A stretch of 64,000 nucleotides of DNA from Candidatus Woesebacteria bacterium. GTDB taxonomy: Bacteria > Patescibacteriota > Microgenomatia > UBA8517. The notes beneath the pieces are model-generated. The model was not told where the DNA came from. It worked only from the letters and a program-made list of their open reading frames with translations, and searched no databases. Below, one piece after another: positions 19,038 through 62,190 of this stretch (within the stretch, counting starts at the first letter, position 1; every line of letters starts with the position of its first letter). The stretch lies in contig CAWASW010000015.1 of assembly GCA_963784785.1 (NCBI GenBank), positions 2,149-66,148 on the forward strand, read 5' to 3'. Made by a program: the position numbers and the translations under genes.

Positions 19038-19232
19038 GATACCGTTGCATAAACGGTCACTTGTTTAGCCTTAAATGATTTGTTGTTTTTCGTTAAAATA
19101 ATAACACTTTCGTCCGATTACTCGGACAATGCTGAAATTGGTTGTAGAAGCGTTTACTTAGTGAAACTACCTTTTTAGGCCGAAAGTATAGTAAAATCAG
19201 TGTGTTTTAGGAGACCGAAATGTAACGGTCTC
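19038..19232 (+). repeat. 195-bp repeat copy A (perfect inverted copy of 30750..30944), abutting the tRNA-Thr 3' end
   Basis: Exact reverse-complement identity to 30750..30944 over 195 bp. Contains hairpins CCGTT-gcata-AACGG and GAGACCG-aaatgtaa-CGGTCTC. The 5' and 3' ends can also pair with each other (ACCGTTGCAT / ATGTAACGGT). Confidence 0.95.
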
Positions 19233-21323: not shown

Positions 21324-22355
21324 TCCAATTAAAACAAACAGCCAGAACATTATGTGGGGGTAGAATAGACTATTTGCAAATGTGCTGTGAATTAATACAG
21401 CAAAGAATGAAGAATATAGAATGTTGAATGTAGAATCAAAAGAACTCATAACACGTAACACGAAACTAATAAACAGAACCAATCCAACAATGCCTGTTGT
21501 GGCAAGTAAAAATAAAATTGAAGAATCGGCGCCGTTACATGCATGTGAGTCAATATTTAAATCACTTAAATATAATCTACGTGCAGAACAGATATTGTTA
21601 AACCCTACGCCAAAAAGAGGCGATTTTTTAATAATCTGCAGGGTTTCTGCATAATTAATTAATTTACTATTTCCACTTACAGTTCTGGTTAAAGTTGTCC
21701 CTTCACCTATATTTTTAGGTAAAAATAAAACTATTAATATAAAAAAAATAAGTGCAATATTTTGTTTTTTAAATAGTAAAAATAAACCAGCAACTAAATA
21801 CGATGCCCGAGAATAAGTAAATGCTAAGCTGAATAGCAAAAAATACATAACTTTCGGGAACTTTTCATATGCCAAAACAATTCCTAAAACTAAAATCAGC
21901 CCTAAATAGGTAGGATCTAAAAATGTGCCAACCATCCGTAACAGATGATCATCCCAACCCAAATATTTAAGAGATGTTAAGTCAGGCCAAAGTAAGTATT
22001 GGAGCCAGCCAAAGATAGTCGTTGCGACGGCAACAGATAATAGATTTAAGATTAAAGATTTACGATTTAAGAAATAATTTGAAACGTAAACGGCGATGAG
22101 GGAATAAGAAATGAGACGAACTAAATACAAGATTGAATTAAGATTTACGAATGAAGAATTAAGAAATAGTCCAAACATGCAGGACATAACAAAATAAATG
22201 AAATATCTGTACCACGAGGGGTAAATAGGTTTCTTTAAAACAGTTATTACAGCAAGGATTAAAACCAAAACGTCAAACAGGTTAATAAAACCAATTTTAA
22301 ATAATTGTCCAAAGGGAAATAGACTTAAGATTGCAAAAAATATAATTTTGTCCAT
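21291..22355 (-). CDS. O-antigen ligase / polymerase family membrane protein (Wzy_C-like)
   Basis: About 10 TM helices with a large periplasmic loop. ...FTYSRASYLVAGLFLLF is typical of the O-antigen ligase family. Confidence 0.65.
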   Translation of the reverse strand: MDKIIFFAILSLFPFGQLFKIGFINLFDVLVLILAVITVLKKPIYPSWYRYFIYFVMSCMFGLFLNSSFVNLNSILYLVRLISYSLIAVYVSNYFLNRKSLILNLLSVAVATTIFGWLQYLLWPDLTSLKYLGWDDHLLRMVGTFLDPTYLGLILVLGIVLAYEKFPKVMYFLLFSLAFTYSRASYLVAGLFLLFKKQNIALIFFILIVLFLPKNIGEGTTLTRTVSGNSKLINYAETLQIIKKSPLFGVGFNNICSARRLYLSDLNIDSHACNGADSSILFLLATTGIVGLVLFISFVLRVMSSFDSTFNILYSSFFAVLIHSTFANSLFYPHIMFWLFVLIGLQTEVSRQTS

Positions 22356-22915
22356 GAGAGATATGAATGTAATGATTGCATTATACTAAATACAACATGT
22401 TTTGATTTAACTAAAGTCACAGCAAACTTTCCAATTGGAAAAAATATAATTTTAAATAAGTTGGATCTCTTTCCTTCATCAAGGTTGGCTTTAGCATGAA
22501 GTGTCGAATAGTTGTTTATTTTTAGCAAATAATCTGAAAGATTATTTGCGGTATTGTGAATAATGTAATTATCAAACATCACACCCGCGAGGTGTGATTT
22601 TTTTGGAAGCCAAACCTCATGAACTGCCCTTACCCATTTTCCTGTCCCCTTTCTGACAAGTCGTGTTGGATAATCTATTCCTATTAACTTACCTAAAAAA
22701 TATGTTTTTCTGGGTAATTGATAACTTGAAAATTCATTGGAAATTGGAAATTGGAAATAAGCGGAGCTTGCCACATTGTGATTGGAAATTGACTCATCCG
22801 AGTCAAGGAACAAATTCCATTCACTTTTTGATTTATCAAGAAGTTCATTTCGCTCATGTCCAAAATCTGTAATATTAGGTTTGTTTAGTTGTAAAATATT
22901 TAACATAATAAGCAA
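22325..22915 (-). CDS. glycosyltransferase family 2-like fragment (N-terminally truncated, possible pseudogene)
   Basis: DxD (LFLDSDE) only ~36 aa from the ORF start, which overlaps the flippase 3' end. The Rossmann N-terminal part is missing. Contains the palindrome-encoded SHLAGVMF. Confidence 0.45.
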   Translation of the reverse strand: MLIMLNILQLNKPNITDFGHERNELLDKSKSEWNLFLDSDESISNHNVASSAYFQFPISNEFSSYQLPRKTYFLGKLIGIDYPTRLVRKGTGKWVRAVHEVWLPKKSHLAGVMFDNYIIHNTANNLSDYLLKINNYSTLHAKANLDEGKRSNLFKIIFFPIGKFAVTLVKSKHVVFSIMQSLHSYLSWTKLYFLQS

Positions 22916-24116
22916 TTAGTACCGGCAGCGTTAAAAGTGTAGCAATTATAGTTGCATATCCTGCACCAAGAATCCCAAAAATTTTTATTAATGGATAAAG
23001 AATTGCAATCAAACAAACTGTAGAAAAAAGTGTAATGTAAGTAACTACTTCTTGTTTATCAATTCCTAAAAACAATGAAAAGAAGGAGTTAGAAATCGCT
23101 TTTATTACACCATAAATAGCAAGAATTTGTAGTACAGGTGCTGCTGAGACCCAAGCATTTCCCAAGACAAATTTAATTATCTCAATTGGAAATTTAAAGA
23201 CAAAATATCCAAAAGGAAAAACAAACAAACAGATAATTAGCAAAGTTTTCAAGAATGCATTTTTAAGTCTAATTTTATCCTCTTTTAAACTTACATAAAT
23301 AGGAAAGGTGACTTTATTAAACACTTCACCGACTTCAGACACAGGAAGAGTTGAAATTTTGTATGCTTGTTGATAAATTCCAAGGCTTGCAGTTCCCATA
23401 ACGCGGCCAACTACGATATCGTCAATATTTTGAAATAAATAGTTAGCAACACCTGCTCCTGTTATCCATTTACCTCGGTTAATTACTTTCAATGTTTTCT
23501 CTTTTTCAAAAATAAACTTCGGTGTAGGTTTAAAGTAAATAAATGAAAGAATTACTTCCAAGGCAGTAGATATAATCATGGCATAAATTAAACTGTTCTC
23601 GGATTTTGTAGCAACTCCAATTGAAATTGCAAAAATTGCGTCAACCAAAAAGATCACTGAGTCATACTTAAACTGTTTGTTAAATTCCAAATTTTTTTGA
23701 TATTTAATGCAAGCAGGATTTATAAAACCACGGATAATAGGGACAATTCCTACAAGATATAAAATAAAAGTTGCATCAGTATTTTTAAAATAGTTAGCAA
23801 TATATGGAGCAAAGATAAATATTAAAATTCCAATTAAAAGACCTCGAATTACAGAAACAACCCAAGCAGAATCGATATATTCATCAATTTTTTCTTTTTG
23901 TTGAACTAAAAATATATTAATCCCAGTTTCAGTTAGCATTTCGAGAAATCCCAAAACCAAGGTTGCAATTCCATAAATTCCAAATTGTGCAGGAAGTAAA
24001 ATACGAGCAAGGATCGCAATTTTAATAAGTGCTAAACTTCGCGTAAAAACACGTAACGCCCCCATCCAACTAATTCCGTTTAAAGCAATTTGAAAATATC
24101 CCATGACTAAAACCAA
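22875..24116 (-). CDS. polysaccharide/O-unit flippase (Wzx, MOP superfamily)
   Basis: 413 aa, 12-14 TM helices, flippase-like N-terminus (…ALNGISWMGALRVFTRSLALIKIAILARILLPAQFGIYGIA). Confidence 0.7.
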   Translation of the reverse strand: MVLVMGYFQIALNGISWMGALRVFTRSLALIKIAILARILLPAQFGIYGIATLVLGFLEMLTETGINIFLVQQKEKIDEYIDSAWVVSVIRGLLIGILIFIFAPYIANYFKNTDATFILYLVGIVPIIRGFINPACIKYQKNLEFNKQFKYDSVIFLVDAIFAISIGVATKSENSLIYAMIISTALEVILSFIYFKPTPKFIFEKEKTLKVINRGKWITGAGVANYLFQNIDDIVVGRVMGTASLGIYQQAYKISTLPVSEVGEVFNKVTFPIYVSLKEDKIRLKNAFLKTLLIICLFVFPFGYFVFKFPIEIIKFVLGNAWVSAAPVLQILAIYGVIKAISNSFFSLFLGIDKQEVVTYITLFSTVCLIAILYPLIKIFGILGAGYATIIATLLTLPVLIAYYVKYFTTKQT

Positions 24117-25008
24117 TTATACAACCAAAGTCCGATACAAATTGAAGTATTATTCCCCAAAGACCAGCCTTACATACAGTGTATAGGGTATAGAGAATAG
24201 CATATAGAATAAACAAAACACTGTTTTGAAAAAACAAAGTCACTCCTAATATGTATCGTGCAAAGATGGTTAGTACTTTTAAGTTGTGTGTTCTCCACTT
24301 TTTTACAGGGTGCCACCAAACATCAGACTCTGCGTCCCCTTTTGCATACCTATAAATCTTCAATCCAAAATCGTAAATCGATTCTGGCATTTTCCAATCA
24401 ACAATTGCCTTTTTGGCTACAACAAATTTAGCACCAGCATTAATTAAATTAATATTAAAAACAGAATCCTCCGCAGTGTCGTTTAAATTTTCAGGAAATC
24501 CACCAACTTTTTTAAAGATAGTTTTTGTAAAAGCCATTGATCTAGCAGAAGGCAAAAAATCTGATTTCATGTCTTGCTGTTTTACTCCAAGAAAAACCGC
24601 CTCGGCCTTTTCAAAATTATTTCTCGCAATCATTCGGTAAAATCCGGCCACTACAATATTAAATACACCCCCGAGGTGTACTTTGTTATAGGGTTTAACC
24701 ATATTCTCTAACCAATCTTTGTGTGGCACACACCCAGCATCAGTAATAGCAATAATCTCATTCCTTGCCATTCGTATGGCCAAGTTCCTTCCTGCCGATC
24801 TTGATATCTCTGTTTTGTTTATAAATTGTAAATTTAGTTTTGAATATTGTTTGATAAATGGTGTTTGGTAATTGGTGTTTATTGTTGCATCCGCAACAAT
24901 CACCTCATCCGCTTTTAATGTCTGTTTATCCAAAGCATTAAGCAGTTCTTGAATAGTTTCTTCCTTTTCATTAAAAGTTGTGATACAAACCGAAACTTTT
25001 AATTCCAT
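24070..25008 (-). CDS. glycosyltransferase family 2
   Basis: VSVCITTFNEKE…(DxD) ITDAG, with C-terminal TM helices. Confidence 0.75.
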   Translation of the reverse strand: MELKVSVCITTFNEKEETIQELLNALDKQTLKADEVIVADATINTNYQTPFIKQYSKLNLQFINKTEISRSAGRNLAIRMARNEIIAITDAGCVPHKDWLENMVKPYNKVHLGGVFNIVVAGFYRMIARNNFEKAEAVFLGVKQQDMKSDFLPSARSMAFTKTIFKKVGGFPENLNDTAEDSVFNINLINAGAKFVVAKKAIVDWKMPESIYDFGLKIYRYAKGDAESDVWWHPVKKWRTHNLKVLTIFARYILGVTLFFQNSVLFILYAILYTLYTVCKAGLWGIILQFVSDFGCIIGFSHGIFSNCFKRN

Positions 25009-25802
25009 AATTTTAAATACACCTTGGCGACATCACTCCAAGTTGGGATAGTTTTTAATTTTTTGATTTCTTTCCAGTAGTCTTCCTTTAAAGGATTGTT
25101 TGCAAAGGTTATAATTTTACATACATAACTTTTTGCTTCTAAATATGAAAGATATCCAGATGGAATACAATACTCTGCAGTTTCTAAATACTTTTCAGGA
25201 TTTGATACGTTACTTACATAAATTACTTTATATACTTTTTGTTGTTTTTTTAGCCATTTCTTAAATTCATTTATACCAGTATCAATATCTTGCCTTCCGA
25301 GCCATACTATCGTATTTTTTGTTTTGACTAATGACAAACGACTAATGGCCAACGACTGTGCTGCCCCATAAATTACATAGTCAGACTTGATGCCGTAATA
25401 TTTATTTATATAGTCACCAACAGCAATACTTCCATTACACAAATGATTAGCAATTCGCTTGTTAAAAACTGCCCATATCGGGAGTGGCCATTTTACTTCC
25501 CAACCATGAAAAGTTATATATACTCGTTTCCTCGGAAACGTAAAAATAAATGGTAGGTACCAAATAAAAACATCATGGATATGAATAATACTTGAGTCAG
25601 TAATTAGCTTTCTGTTTTTAAATAGCCAATACCAAATATAAAATAGTCCTAAATATTTTATTTTTGGTGGTTTGATATCTTCCTCAGAAATAATTGTAAA
25701 TTCATAATTCTTAAATCTAAGTTCATAAATCAAATTCTTTATATGTCTCTCCACCCCACCAACATGCGGTTCTTTGTGTTTAGCCAAAAAAAGTATTTTC
25801 AT
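24999..25802 (-). CDS. glycosyltransferase GT4 N-terminal-domain protein (short, possibly truncated)
   Basis: MKILFLAKHKEPHVGGVERHIKNL is typical of the Glyco_trans_4 N-terminal domain. 267 aa is short for a GT4. Confidence 0.5.
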   Translation of the reverse strand: MKILFLAKHKEPHVGGVERHIKNLIYELRFKNYEFTIISEEDIKPPKIKYLGLFYIWYWLFKNRKLITDSSIIHIHDVFIWYLPFIFTFPRKRVYITFHGWEVKWPLPIWAVFNKRIANHLCNGSIAVGDYINKYYGIKSDYVIYGAAQSLAISRLSLVKTKNTIVWLGRQDIDTGINEFKKWLKKQQKVYKVIYVSNVSNPEKYLETAEYCIPSGYLSYLEAKSYVCKIITFANNPLKEDYWKEIKKLKTIPTWSDVAKVYLKLWN

Positions 25803-30749: not shown

Positions 30750-30944
30750 GAGACCGTTACATTTCGGTCTCCTAAAACACACTGATTTTACTATACTTTC
30801 GGCCTAAAAAGGTAGTTTCACTAAGTAAACGCTTCTACAACCAATTTCAGCATTGTCCGAGTAATCGGACGAAAGTGTTATTATTTTAACGAAAAACAAC
30901 AAATCATTTAAGGCTAAACAAGTGACCGTTTATGCAACGGTATC
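30750..30944 (-). repeat. 195-bp repeat copy B (inverted copy of 19038..19232), abutting the tRNA-Val 3' end
   Basis: Exact reverse complement of copy A, in the same position relative to its tRNA. Confidence 0.95.
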
Positions 30945-30949
30945 ATAAG

Positions 30950-31021
30950 TGGATGACGTTGGGATTGAACCAACAGCCTCTTCGATGTGAACGAAGCGCT
31001 CTACCACTGAGCTAGTCATCC
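30950..31021 (-). tRNA. tRNA-Val (anticodon CAC)
   Basis: Minus-strand cloverleaf. Acceptor GGATGAC/GTCATCC, D arm GCTC-AGTGGTAGAGC, anticodon stem CTTCG/CGAAG with loop TTCACAT, T arm GTTGG-TTCAATC-CCAAC. Confidence 0.85.
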
Positions 31022-38394: not shown

Positions 38395-38700
38395 TAATTA
38401 TATAGTAAATATATTCTTAAAGGGCGACTTTTATGAAGACGCGGTACCACCTTTATTACTTCTTAATTTTAAGCTTTAACGGGGCTTATTTACCCCTGAT
38501 TTAATCGGGGACCGAAAGGTTCTATTTTCTTTAAAACGCCAATCTTTCGCTTTAAAGATTTCTTCCTTTAGCAGAGGATTGATTTTCCTCTATTGCCTAC
38601 AAATATTATTATAACACGAAATTTGTTAAATCCCACATCGGGAGTGGTTTACTATTGGCACCTCGGGATATTTATAATAATTTAGTGAATTTTGCGAAGG
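38395..38700 (-). promoter_or_regulatory. T-box riboswitch leader, Ile specifier (AUC)
   Basis: Minus strand has the conserved T-box sequence AATAAAGGTGGTACCGCG (plus 38438-38455). Upstream is stem AGAGGA-AAATCAAT-TCCTCT with AUC plus purine in the specifier loop (about plus 38560-38582). It lies immediately 5' of ileS. Confidence 0.7.
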
Positions 38701-38775
38701 AAAGCAGGGATTTCAAATTTGTCTCCAAAAGTGTCATCATTATCATCTTCTATTTTTTCATCTTCCTCTGCAGAA

Positions 38776-41895: not shown

Positions 41896-41923
41896 ACTTA
41901 TAAGGTCAAACCTTTAAAGGTAG

Positions 41924-42595
41924 TCAATCCAAGGTGTATCTTTCAATTAATTCTATATCATTTTTATCAATTTGATTTTCTACGAATGCCTGATATGAAG
42001 ATCTGTTACCGTTTTTGTTTGAAAAATATGACTGTATTACATCTTTCTTAACCCACGAAGTGTTTCTCATCCCAATATGATCTGCATACGATGAGTAAGA
42101 ATCAGACAAATTATTTTTCAATTCCTTCGGATTTAGATGAATGTATCTTGACAGGTGCAACAAATAACTCTCGTTGGAAACGGCCACAGCTTTATACACA
42201 CCCTGAAACAAACTACCCGATCTTTCATATTTTTTATTAAAATAAACTGAATATCGTGTAGCAATTGATCTCATAAAGTTTTTCATGCTACCTACATCTC
42301 TTTGTTTTAGTAACAGATGGAAATGGTTCGGCATTAAGCAATAACAAACTAAATCTATTTGATCAGAATAATTATTTACTAACCTAGGTATACCTTTAAA
42401 GGTTGAACCTTTTAAGGTAACTTCAATTTCAAATTCACTCAAAGGTCTCGATGGAGATAGATATTCCTTAAGGTAACCCAAAAATACTTTATAATCTTGT
42501 TCATCCTCAAAAATTACTCTTTTGTCTACACCTCTGTTATATACATGATAGTAAATCTCTTCGATATCAAATTTTACGCTATTTTTGGCAGGCAT
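41924..42595 (-). CDS. REP-associated tyrosine transposase-like / IS200-like Y1 transposase (Transposase_17 family)
   Basis: YHVYNRGVDKR, HUH CYCLMPNHFHLLL, Tyr region LSRYIHLNP. Flanked by AAGGT-caa-ACCTT hairpins within ACCTTTAAAGGTCAAACC motifs at ~41901-41921 and ~42607-42626, with a third copy inside at ~42392-42420. Confidence 0.8.
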   Translation of the reverse strand: MPAKNSVKFDIEEIYYHVYNRGVDKRVIFEDEQDYKVFLGYLKEYLSPSRPLSEFEIEVTLKGSTFKGIPRLVNNYSDQIDLVCYCLMPNHFHLLLKQRDVGSMKNFMRSIATRYSVYFNKKYERSGSLFQGVYKAVAVSNESYLLHLSRYIHLNPKELKNNLSDSYSSYADHIGMRNTSWVKKDVIQSYFSNKNGNRSSYQAFVENQIDKNDIELIERYTLD

Positions 42596-42634
42596 AAATA
42601 AATATTACCTTTAAAGGTCAAACCTTACAAGTAA

Positions 42635-60106: not shown

Positions 60107-60321
60107 TATTTTTATTCATTCTGGGCAGAATGTGAGTTAGATGGTAATCCATTTCCCTCCATTACTAACCATTTTGCATTTTCTTTCACGCCATGTCAAT
60201 AGTTATTTTCACCGAACAAAGTACATCAATTTAGTTTTGTGTCATTGCGAGGAGCCATGCGACGTGGCAATCCAATATTAGATTGCTTCACTTTGTTCGC
60301 AATGACAAATTGGCTGATTTT

Positions 60322-61008: not shown

Positions 61009-61061
61009 CTTAATCTATTTTCAATTCAAATTCCGATATTGTCAACTAGCATCTCTAAAAA

Positions 61062-61817
61062 TACACCTCGGGGGTGTATTCATATTGACACCTTGGTACA
61101 AATGGTTCATAAATAATTATGGCAAGAAGACTTGTCCCCCTTATTACTGGTTATTATTATCATGTTTACAATCGCGGCGTAAACAAACGTAGAATCTTCA
61201 CACACAAACATGAATATGTTCACACAATTAATTTAATTAAATTTTATAATTACGTCGATTATCCAATCAGATTTTCCAAATTTATGCTATTGCACAAAGA
61301 CCAGAGAAAAGAAATCTGGCAAAGATTATCAAAAAGTAACAAGTACACAGACATCCTATCATACTGTTTGATGCCCAATCACTTTCATTTTTTGATAAAA
61401 CAGAATGTTGATCATGGAATATCTAAATTTATTGGTAATTTTCAAAATAGCTATGTCAAATATTTCAATATCAAAAACCAACGTGTAGGCCCATTATTTC
61501 AAGGACAATTCAAGGCAGTTAAGATTGACACGAAAGAACAACTATTACATGTTTCCAGATATATACATCTAAATCCATATTCTTCAGGAATAGTTGCTAA
61601 TACAGAGAAATTAGCAAGTTATAAGTGGTCATCATTACAAGAGTACTTAAATGAAGCCAAATTTCCGTTTTGCGATAAAGACGACATCTTATCTAATTTT
61701 AAATCTAAAAATTCATATAAAGAATTTGTGTTAAATAACGCAGGTTATCAAAAAGAGTTAGAGGATACTAAGCACTATAACCTAGAGTAAGGTACTAAAG
61801 TACACCTCGGGGGTGTA
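61062..61817 (+). mobile_element. RAYT-like unit: Y1 transposase gene bracketed by identical palindromes TACACCTCGGGGGTGTA
   Basis: Identical 17-nt hairpins at 61062-61078 and 61801-61817 in direct orientation, 40 bp upstream and 11 bp downstream of the gene. Confidence 0.75.
61119..61790 (+). CDS. REP-associated tyrosine transposase-like / IS200-like Y1 transposase (Transposase_17 family)
   Basis: YHVYNRGVNKR, HUH CLMPNHFHFLI, Tyr region VSRYIHLNP. Paralog of 41924..42595. Confidence 0.8.
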   Translation: MARRLVPLITGYYYHVYNRGVNKRRIFTHKHEYVHTINLIKFYNYVDYPIRFSKFMLLHKDQRKEIWQRLSKSNKYTDILSYCLMPNHFHFLIKQNVDHGISKFIGNFQNSYVKYFNIKNQRVGPLFQGQFKAVKIDTKEQLLHVSRYIHLNPYSSGIVANTEKLASYKWSSLQEYLNEAKFPFCDKDDILSNFKSKNSYKEFVLNNAGYQKELEDTKHYNLE

Positions 61818-61818
61818 T

Positions 61819-62190
61819 TTAATCTAATACCTTATCTGTCTTTAATAATTCAGTTTTATTTTTACCCGTTAAAACTTGTTTTAAAACTAAAAATTTCACT
61901 ACATTATCTGTATGGTTTGTAAATGTATGCGGGGTATATCCTGTCTCAATCAAATCTCCGACAGATACAATCTGTGTCTTCTCTTCATTATTTTCTTTCC
62001 ATGTTACAGTTAATTCACCTTCAATAATAAATAAAGTTTCAGAAATTTTTTCATGGTGGTGCCAGGTTTGTGTCGAGCCTGCCACTTGTTCATTATAATG
62101 AACCTCGTATTCGTCTCGAAGATAATAATCTACCTTTGTCCCTTCTGGCTTATCTACATGGATAGCATCAGACTTTTTAATAATTTTCAT
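61819..62190 (-). CDS. cupin-domain protein
   Basis: 123 aa. His-containing motif WHHHE…G…H across two beta-strands (TQTWHHHEKISETLFIIEGEL). Confidence 0.6.
   Translation of the reverse strand: MKIIKKSDAIHVDKPEGTKVDYYLRDEYEVHYNEQVAGSTQTWHHHEKISETLFIIEGELTVTWKENNEEKTQIVSVGDLIETGYTPHTFTNHTDNVVKFLVLKQVLTGKNKTELLKTDKVLD

Follow-up and report, generated by a model that had tools for sequence, protein, structure and literature searches.

The window analysed here, a 64-kb stretch of a Candidatus Woesebacteria genome, contains two loci that share one short, GC-rich hairpin: a gene for a Y1 HUH transposase of the RAYT/TIRYT type (RAYT, REP-associated tyrosine transposase; REP, repetitive extragenic palindrome) and a family 2 glycosyltransferase (GT2) gene belonging to a polysaccharide operon. 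The transposase gene (61119..61790, plus strand; 223 aa) lies between (i) a left hairpin, AATACACCTCGGGGGTGTATT (61060..61080, plus strand), displaying an 8-bp stem and the loop TCGGG, and (ii) a right hairpin (61797..61823, plus strand; core 61801-61817), which is the 27-mer AAAGTACACCTCGGGGGTGTATTTAAT. The same 27-mer, identical at 27/27 positions, stands as a solo copy on the minus strand inside the GT2 gene (24658..24684), where it is read in frame as residues K109-N117 (KVHLGGVFN). Its 17-nt core, TACACCTCGGGGGTGTA, comprises the stem TACACC/GGTGTA around the loop TCGGG and occurs exactly at 24664-80(-), 61062-78(+) and 61801-17(+); as read from the sequence, it contains zero stop codons in all six frames. 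Copy numbers for the source genome refer to the 64-kb window, which comprises three exact cores and one diverged variant, plus one module of a second type (type B).

That the 27-mer is common to the GT2 gene and the right flank of the transposase, with the core also in the left flank, had been noticed in a preliminary description made from the letters alone, and the observation was borne out. With up to three mismatches allowed, the window displays two matches to the 27-mer against 0.00 expected from 100 shuffles, and 0.01 exact cores are expected, so that a chance match was rejected. The earlier positions of the right flank (61797..61823) and the left core (61062..61078) stand, whereas the GT2 copy lies at 24658..24684 instead of 24657..24683, and a diverged palindrome, discussed below, at 22578..22598 instead of 22575..22595. 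Folded as single-stranded DNA (ssDNA), all four hairpin copies form a stem of 6-8 bp with a 5-nt loop, stabler than shuffled sequences (z -2.2 to -5.2), with -6.5 kcal/mol for the left flank (z -5.2), -5.0 kcal/mol for the right flank (z -3.3) and -4.9 kcal/mol for the GT2 copy (z -2.2); the hairpins stand out because the window has a G+C content of only about 33%. A half-site, GACACCTTGGT (61087..61097, plus strand), repeats the 5' arm and loop of the hairpin 8 nt downstream of the left copy and, as seen by eye, shares bases with a TTGACA hexamer that immediately precedes the start of the transposase gene and might act in a promoter; the hexamer is not listed by the promoter scan. A terminator or promoter role of the flanks themselves was rejected, with no terminator-like site near them and promoter-like sites no commoner than in shuffles, as was a known RNA family, Rfam at gathering thresholds giving two tRNAs only in the window.

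The transposase matches the Pfam family PF01797 (Y1_Tnp; E 1e-9; 39 bits against a cut-off of 23) and displays (i) the HUH motif NHFH, with H88 and H90, within PNHFHF, (ii) FQGQF, (iii) YIHLNP, with Y148, N152 and P153, and (iv) an SS motif in NPYSSG, followed by a C-terminal extension of about 70 aa. A total of 6889 homologues were retrieved, and NHFH and YIHLNP are invariant across 28 aligned ones. A search of the PDB with the single sequence gave no match and a profile was needed; the best match of the family profile is E. coli TnpA_REP (PDB code 4ER8; E 1.2e-3), just ahead of ISDra2 TnpA, the two motifs aligning with PEHMH and YIYINP of 4ER8. The arrangement of mraZ, a small membrane protein gene, the hairpin-gene-hairpin unit, a cupin gene in some cases, and glyS is common to four genomes, namely the window, L040, L206/L207 and L211/L212, with transposases 59-68% identical, and this shared locus indicates, from sequence comparison, that the gene is vertically inherited. 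A single copy, preserved synteny and a conserved cognate hairpin on either side are the pattern of a RAYT and not that of IS200. Besides it, the window encodes one paralog, also of 223 aa and 36% identical to it (41924-42595, minus strand), with other flanks (41902-41921 and 42607-42626). These are AT-rich palindromes, ACCTTTAAAGGT overlapping AAGGTTTGACCTT; the open reading frame (ORF) of the paralog holds two more copies of the palindrome (42392-42418), read as TLKGSTFKG, with no further copies in the window.

The hairpin is by no means confined to this genome. An exact scan for the 17-mer, with one genome per species, returned at least 119 loci; 73 of the matches listed lie in loci with a G+C fraction of at least 0.5 (Streptomyces and others) and, being probably due to chance, were disregarded, and about 50 of those listed lie in low-GC genomes of many phyla, most of these low-GC copies falling in short open frames, i.e., being intergenic. 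Among the matches listed, multi-copy genomes comprise a metagenome-assembled genome (MAG) of Levyibacteriota with at least eight copies, another MAG with at least six, a Nealsonbacteria MAG with four and one more with three, and the extension of the stem beyond the 17-nt core co-varies between genomes. Phage carriage as a route across phyla is unsupported, the 17-mer being present in two IMG/VR contigs only. In a separate setting, four Bacteroidota genomes (L008, L019, L027, L103) share the exact 17-mer within the conserved surroundings tttgcNcc...TACACCTCGGGGGTGTA..., where it coincides with, or shortly precedes, the N-terminal end of an approximately 490-aa open frame; this may represent a different conserved use of the same hairpin.

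Exact 17-mers are located on both sides of the transposase gene in the window and in L040 (Woesebacteria; transposase 59% identical), in the same orientation, and variants on both sides in L012, L079, L207 and L211. The 17-mer stands directly beside the transposase homologue in L012 (Nanoarchaeia MAG, 43% identity) and L079 (Kazan MAG, 37% identity), with the flanks inverted in both. The left flank hairpin of L040 preserves the position and sequence of that of the window, and its right flank carries AAAGTACACCTCGGGGGTGTATTT at the same place, in the form AAAG-core-TTT; the right-flank form thus predates the GT2 copy, since L040 already has AAAG..TTT. Equivalent half-sites are GACACCTCGGGGT in L040, GCCACCTCGGT in L207 and GCCACATCGGT in L211, and the foot of the stem reads AAAG or AAA ahead of TACACC in the window, and cttgt, ttt and others elsewhere. 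The preliminary description had left open that the hairpin family was seeded from the GT2 gene; this finds no support, because RAYT homologues of Woesebacteria, Nanoarchaeia and Kazan bacteria all have the 17-mer beside them, which makes it older than the GT2 insertion.

The host gene (24070..25008, minus strand) encodes a GT2 of 312 aa (PF00535, E 3e-16) with a C-terminal membrane part, and Pfam GT2 families are matched by the sequence before the hairpin as well as after it. It has 580 homologues, of which the named ones belong to Patescibacteria or Microgenomates, and is located in a polysaccharide operon of the order GT4 - GT2 - flippase - ORF196 - Wzy-like, a synteny kept in L120, L202, L203 and L208. 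In the AlphaFold2 model (mean pLDDT 91.6), the insert comprises the end of the helix 99-113 and the turn 114-117, ahead of the strand 118-127, i.e., the helix-to-strand connection after the GT2 DxD motif, with a local pLDDT of about 75, the lowest of the catalytic domain. The ORF is intact and the residues of the catalytic region are conserved, which, together with the confident model, indirectly supports that the predicted GT2 function is retained with the insert.

The stretch between WLxx and VVAG, a surface loop, was defined as the loop and compared in the 120 best orthologues, aligned, and in a second sample of 60 distinct loop sequences that match this motif, taken from all fetched loci and mostly from distant metagenome orthologues. 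The loop comprises 12 aa or fewer in 57/120 best orthologues, typically 11 aa as in ITSPFKKGNID, and is longer in the rest; it is canonical in 47 of the 60 distinct sequences. Orthologues with the canonical 11-aa loop are without the hairpin, and the hairpin is an acquisition because such loops prevail among the orthologues. The loop of the window comprises 16 aa against the canonical 11, which makes the net gain about five residues and not nine; the earlier proposal of an in-frame insertion of a REP-like element therefore holds as to acquisition, not as to the nine residues it was thought to add. The hairpin in the GT2 gene thus combines an in-frame repeat, an unbroken ORF and absence from the canonical orthologues, as in intragenic REPs and palindromic elements of the kind known from Rickettsia.

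Across orthologues, GC-rich palindromic inserts of seven or more sequence classes occupy the same loop. In 13 long loops with available DNA, the G+C fraction is 0.49 against 0.35 for the gene, and the minimum free energy per nucleotide is -0.27 against -0.07 for canonical loops. L120, with a GT2 47% identical, displays AAA GTACACC cccga GGTGTAC at the same codon, preserving the stem with the 5-nt loop reverse-complemented; the loop of L204 carries GGAAATACACCTccgAGGTGTATTTCC; and L202 and 13 other orthologues contain another palindrome family, GATTGC...GCAATGAC, read as ..IASSQxPRND. The largest insert observed at this hot spot is that of L148, a metagenome orthologue with a loop of 48 aa, 37 aa over the canonical length, and a very strong predicted self-pairing of -60 kcal/mol (z -3.6). 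Elsewhere in the GT2 protein, 8-aa inserts of almost identical peptide sequence (KQSLPLRG, NQSLSLRG, KQSLLLRS) are observed sporadically, after query residue 128 in P0022, P0040 and P0066 and after residue 148 in P0053 and P0096, with AAG CAG AGC TTG CTA CTC CGT AGT as the DNA in L203; this looks like another small element landing in frame.

The palindrome family seen in L202 is also represented in the window, outside the GT2 gene. A REP-like doublet of this second family occupies the spacer upstream of mraZ (60240-60307), as GTCATTGCGAGGAGCCATGCGACGTGGCAATC caatatta GATTGCTTCACTTTGTTCGCAATGAC (-15.7 kcal/mol, z -3.9). The corresponding spacers of L040 and L207 lack it, the window displays no cognate transposase for it, and members of the family occur in frame in the same GT2 loop elsewhere, L202 being an example.

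Beyond the two RAYT flanks and the GT2 copy, the diverged hairpin ATCACACCTCGCGGGTGTGAT (22578..22598, minus strand; -8.9 kcal/mol, z -4.7) lies within ORF196 (22325-22915), about 2 kb downstream of the GT2 copy, whose operon, strand and reading frame it shares. It differs from the core at 3/17 positions, two of which represent a compensatory change of T:A to C:G in the stem, against 0.01 such matches expected per window. The preliminary description had seen this palindrome, but had taken its host (ORF 22325..22915) for a truncated GT2 paralog; the palindrome is there and encodes SHLAGVM, its host being a conserved gene of 170-196 aa that keeps its place in the operon across other genomes, with no Pfam match, and the length of the segment native. 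A pairwise alignment with L120 had suggested a clean 12-aa insertion; this was withdrawn after ten more orthologues, with segments normally of 10-14 aa, were considered. ORF196 also contains about 20 extra AT-rich residues (SNHNVASSAYFQFPISNEFS, about 22727-22786, minus strand) right after a DSDE motif, which are missing in the L120 and L208 orthologues.

A comparison across two genomes connects the GT2 loop more closely to the transposase. A 158-kb contig from Hainich groundwater carries both genes, the RAYT gene (L206/L207) and the GT2 gene (L208), and the two are spaced about 37-38 kb apart there as in the window. The RAYT flanks of L207 are of type B, comprising ATCCCACATCGGGAGTGGAT, the spacer tactatt and the half-site GCCACCTCGGT, and the GT2 loop of L208 reads ACCGAGGTGGC aaggagaa ACCACATCGGGAGTGGGAT. 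Here the half-site comes first, reverse-complemented, and the hairpin core of the flanks comes second, flank and loop having an exact 11-mer and an exact 15-mer in common. In L123 and L124 the module is the same except that its hairpin loop is flipped. The hairpin variant of the GT2 loop is accordingly that of the RAYT flanks of its own genome in both cases, type A in the window and type B in the Hainich contig. This co-variation, seen in two genomes only (n=2), is the strongest argument that a process linked to the RAYT makes or maintains the loop copy.

The window also contains a solo intergenic type B module, ATCCCACATCGGGAGTGGTT tactatt GGCACCTCGGG (38630..38667, plus strand), located between ileS and ftsZ and preserving the layout of hairpin, spacer and half-site displayed by the RAYT flanks of L207 and L211, with one mismatch over 20 nt against 0 matches expected. 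The stretch that follows (38681-38749) shows a very weak similarity to the RAYT C-terminus (E 2.9), and the module may be what is left of a second element now lost.

Taken together, we consider it probable that the 27-mer is a solo copy, in the GT2 loop, of the cognate recognition hairpin of the single-copy Y1 HUH transposase at 61119-61790. The transposase would bind the folded hairpin in ssDNA and cut and rejoin the strand beside it, occasionally placing copies of the hairpin elsewhere in the genome; catalysis of the copying by the RAYT protein, a single-strand mechanism and neutrality for the GT2 enzyme are all proposed. Binding, cutting and rejoining of this kind are suggested by analogy with TnpA_REP and IS200/IS605, which recognize ssDNA hairpins (PMC3333891, PMC3479197, PMC8266576). 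In small, gene-dense genomes, surviving copies would be those that are intergenic or that lie where a protein tolerates extra residues. The copy in the GT2 loop would lengthen the loop from 11 to 16 aa and be simply translated, as (K)VHLGGV(FN), because its core carries no stop in any frame. Copying into the loop, or the homogenising of a copy already resident, would be recurrent or continuing, because the loop variant matches the RAYT flanks of its own genome in two genomes and the loop is occupied in many. A further and rather doubtful step, offered tentatively, is that the GT2 loop is a long-lived REP site evolving in concert with the RAYT flanks, rewritten or re-inserted by the RAYT or by hairpin-directed repair or template switching; such a concerted process may also "REP-ise" native coding sequences of matching shape, as in the ORF196 segment and in the GT4 15-mer described below.

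Several observations weigh against the derivation of the loop copy from the RAYT hairpin. GTAG (or CGTC), the tag of REP/RAYT systems, is missing from the stem foot of the hairpin of the window, E. coli TnpA_REP requiring the GTAG tag. The motif set of the protein is that of TnpA_Y1 subclass 2.1, which has been described as not REP-associated (PMC6006769), and its sole NCBIfam match, NF047646 (REP_Tyr_transpos), reaches 50.3 bits, below the cut-off of 80. At the insertion site, the net gain is 15 nt against 27 nt shared, which implies that native bases were replaced or that the flanks of the core are in part chance matches, and the nearest GT2 orthologue is 67% identical, with no close empty-site relative, so that the insertion event is not seen directly. 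The ORF196 hairpin is REP-like by sequence and not a clean insertion, its 14-aa segment being variable, 10-14 aa long in most orthologues and absent in L120 only. In addition, WPLPMW, a native motif conserved in the neighbouring GT4, is encoded by the type B core 15-mer, CCACTCCCGATGTGG; L208 (5525-5539) and L126 (3522-3536) contain this 15-mer exactly, the window (25473-25487, minus strand) matches it at 14/15 positions, and other GT4 orthologues use different codons (ATT CCA) for this region. The GT4 15-mer could be due to chance, to a gene converted towards the hairpin or to a hairpin variant derived from the gene, and it makes the relations between genes and hairpins more tangled than a one-way insertion.

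The alternative with an appreciable chance of being right is that of a single old insertion in the ancestor of the GT2 clade, the site having since been kept in step with the RAYT flanks by short-patch conversion or replacement and its hairpin exchanged for other palindromes in some lineages, which would imply that the copy in the window is not a recent independent insertion. The window and L120 indeed share the codon position and the 5' context (CCC TAT AAY AAA GTACACC) in proteins only 47% identical, and only the 5-nt loop is flipped in L120, not the flanks, as fits an inversion of the loop in place. The co-variation of types A and B with the RAYT flanks is also what concerted evolution would give, and the separation of the RAYT and GT2 genes is alike in both genomes. 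On the GT2 tree, however, the loop classes are scattered, with 47 state changes against 59.6 with shuffled labels and 26 changes of gain or loss, a result that, from a rough neighbour-joining tree, is not decisive; the nearest relatives of the window protein (P0002-P0005) carry canonical or other-class loops, and we know of no conversion mechanism for tracts of 20-40 nt. The occupation of one loop by at least seven unrelated palindrome classes across genomes, and the second REP-like hairpin 2 kb downstream in the same operon, strand and frame, could also suggest that a stable hairpin at this place serves the host, for example in pausing, processing or stability at the mRNA or DNA level, and is selected whatever its sequence, the link with the RAYT being incidental. 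We regard this as improbable, given that about half of the close and nearly all of the distant orthologues lack a hairpin there, that the sequence is specific, being 27/27 identical to a RAYT flank and co-varying with it in a second genome, and that neither an Rfam match nor a terminator-like site near the RAYT flanks was found.

A reading of the unit of hairpin, gene and hairpin as an autonomous insertion sequence (IS) of the IS200/IS605 type, the GT2 copy being a leftover end or target-like site, is very unlikely. The two flanks have the same orientation in the window and in L040, like the ends of IS200/IS605 elements, the unit measures about 760 bp and the protein belongs to Pfam Y1_Tnp; on the other hand, such elements excise leaving no ends, the flanks are inverted in L012 and L079, the window contains one copy of the gene and a 36% identical paralog with different flanks, and the same locus in four genomes indicates vertical inheritance. 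The tyrosine motif, moreover, is Y---NP, the signature of class 2 TnpA_Y1, and not the Y---Q of IS200 (PMC6006769). Least credible, and largely refuted, is the view that KVHLGGV is a native GT2 motif from which the hairpin family was seeded. The type B 15-mer, being native WPLPMW coding sequence in the adjacent GT4, lends it some colour, but most orthologues have the canonical 11-aa loop without the motif, the right-flank form is common to L040, and the identical 17-mer flanks RAYT homologues as distant as those of Nanoarchaeia and Kazan bacteria. According to the preliminary description, distant GT2 proteins with the same residues and without RAYTs would speak for a native motif; the same or related hairpins do occur in L120, L204 and L208, but there is also the co-variation with the RAYT flanks, which favours a repeated or continuing copying linked to the RAYT over a native motif.

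Set against known systems, the RAYT of the window resembles the REP/RAYT "REPtrons", with E. coli TnpA_REP and its REPs and BIMEs (bacterial interspersed mosaic elements) as type example (PDB code 4ER8; PMC3333891, PMC3479197, PMC8266576), in comprising a single-copy, vertically inherited Y1 HUH gene with its own short GC-rich hairpin on both sides and copies elsewhere, and in the solved structure, 4ER8, that its family profile matches best. The two differ in that (i) the flanks here comprise one hairpin and a half-site each and not BIME clusters, (ii) the copies observed are few, four in 64 kb and at least eight in the richest genome listed, REPs reaching tens to hundreds over a whole genome, and (iii) the protein falls below the NCBIfam cut-off, bears the extension of about 70 aa and belongs to Patescibacteria, with relatives in DPANN.

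The TIRYT/TIRtron systems (Di Nocera et al. 2013, PMC3733652) were equated by Quentin et al. (2018, PMC6006769) with TnpA_Y1 subclass 2.1 and correspond roughly to the RAYT Group 1 of Bertels et al. (2017, PMC5581495). For subclass 2.1, Table 1 of PMC6006769 gives the motifs NH[YF]H, FQ, Y[IV]HLNP and a serine motif, a median length of about 238 aa and a C-terminal tail. By its motifs, the window protein matches this subclass, with a similar size (about 223-238 aa) and low copy number, and the flanking G-run GGGGTGTA agrees with 6/8 positions of the TIRYT consensus GGGGWSAS. The subclass has been reported to lack adjacent REP-like structures and had not been observed in Archaea (PMC6006769); the flanks here, in contrast, are self-complementary hairpins, arranged in direct or inverted orientation in different genomes. 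Their 17-mer does not differ between phyla, solo copies of it are dispersed, and a Nanoarchaeia MAG encodes a homologue next to this hairpin. IS200/IS605 elements (IS608, ISDra2; PDB code 2XM3) share the Y1 HUH enzyme, subterminal hairpins in place of terminal inverted repeats and a presumed action on ssDNA; the transposase of the window differs from them in Y---NP instead of Y---Q, in the lack of tnpB and in being single-copy and syntenic, where these are multi-copy and patchy.

Intragenic REPs provide a precedent for the GT2 copy (Di Nocera et al. 2013, PMC3733652). As in such REPs and in the Rickettsia palindromic elements (RPEs), an intact gene contains a palindromic repeat in frame, which adds a few residues at a tolerated place. 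The RPEs, attributed to work by Ogata et al. in 2000, are reportedly about 100-150 bp long and inserted in frame in intact genes, and to our knowledge no transposase is known for them, whereas the element here comprises 17-40 nt and has a cognate transposase gene about 37-38 kb away. Unlike both, the same loop is occupied by several palindrome families in orthologues, and variation of the loop copy goes along with that of the RAYT flanks. In the literature searched, no description was found of (i) such a RAYT/TIRYT family in Patescibacteria or DPANN, (ii) a subclass-2.1-like protein with true hairpin flanks, (iii) a single protein loop hit by many palindrome families or (iv) an intragenic copy co-varying with RAYT flanks.

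The GT2 hairpin is thus an intragenic REP-like copy of a RAYT-associated hairpin, an element of a known kind that displays some new features. Work on REP/RAYT systems has dealt almost exclusively with Proteobacteria, and the spread of REPs and the persistence of single-copy RAYTs are open questions, to which a 17-nt hairpin identical across phyla, next to proteins 37-59% identical, contributes a very clean pair of protein and DNA for biochemical work, from a subclass described in the literature as devoid of REPs. An intragenic copy that tracks the RAYT-flank variant in two genomes would be a natural reporter of activity and, because of this tracking, whether RAYTs homogenise or re-insert REPs is testable by comparative genomics alone. 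The loop suggests that tolerated protein loops are landing places for palindromic repeats where intergenic DNA is scarce, and such inserts would be a source of variation in surface enzymes comparable to the Rickettsia palindromic elements. If the loop and the flanks do evolve in concert, a domesticated transposase would be a recurrent source of loop variation in the cell-surface polysaccharide enzymes of Patescibacteria; if the co-variation fails on a larger sample, an ordinary intragenic REP remains.

The polysaccharide cluster, including both intragenic hairpins, is entirely enclosed by an inverted repeat of 195 nt, with arms 100% complementary (19038-19232 and 30750-30944) and separated by 11,517 nt. 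Each arm begins a few bases past the 3' end of a tRNA, namely tRNA-Thr(cgt) (18961-19032, plus strand) and tRNA-Val(cac) (30949-31021, minus strand). GC and AT skew were considered as a sign of inversion of this 11.5-kb segment and dropped, the codon composition of membrane proteins explaining the skew; the repeat could delimit an invertible or mobile segment, represent a shared downstream element or be an assembly artefact.

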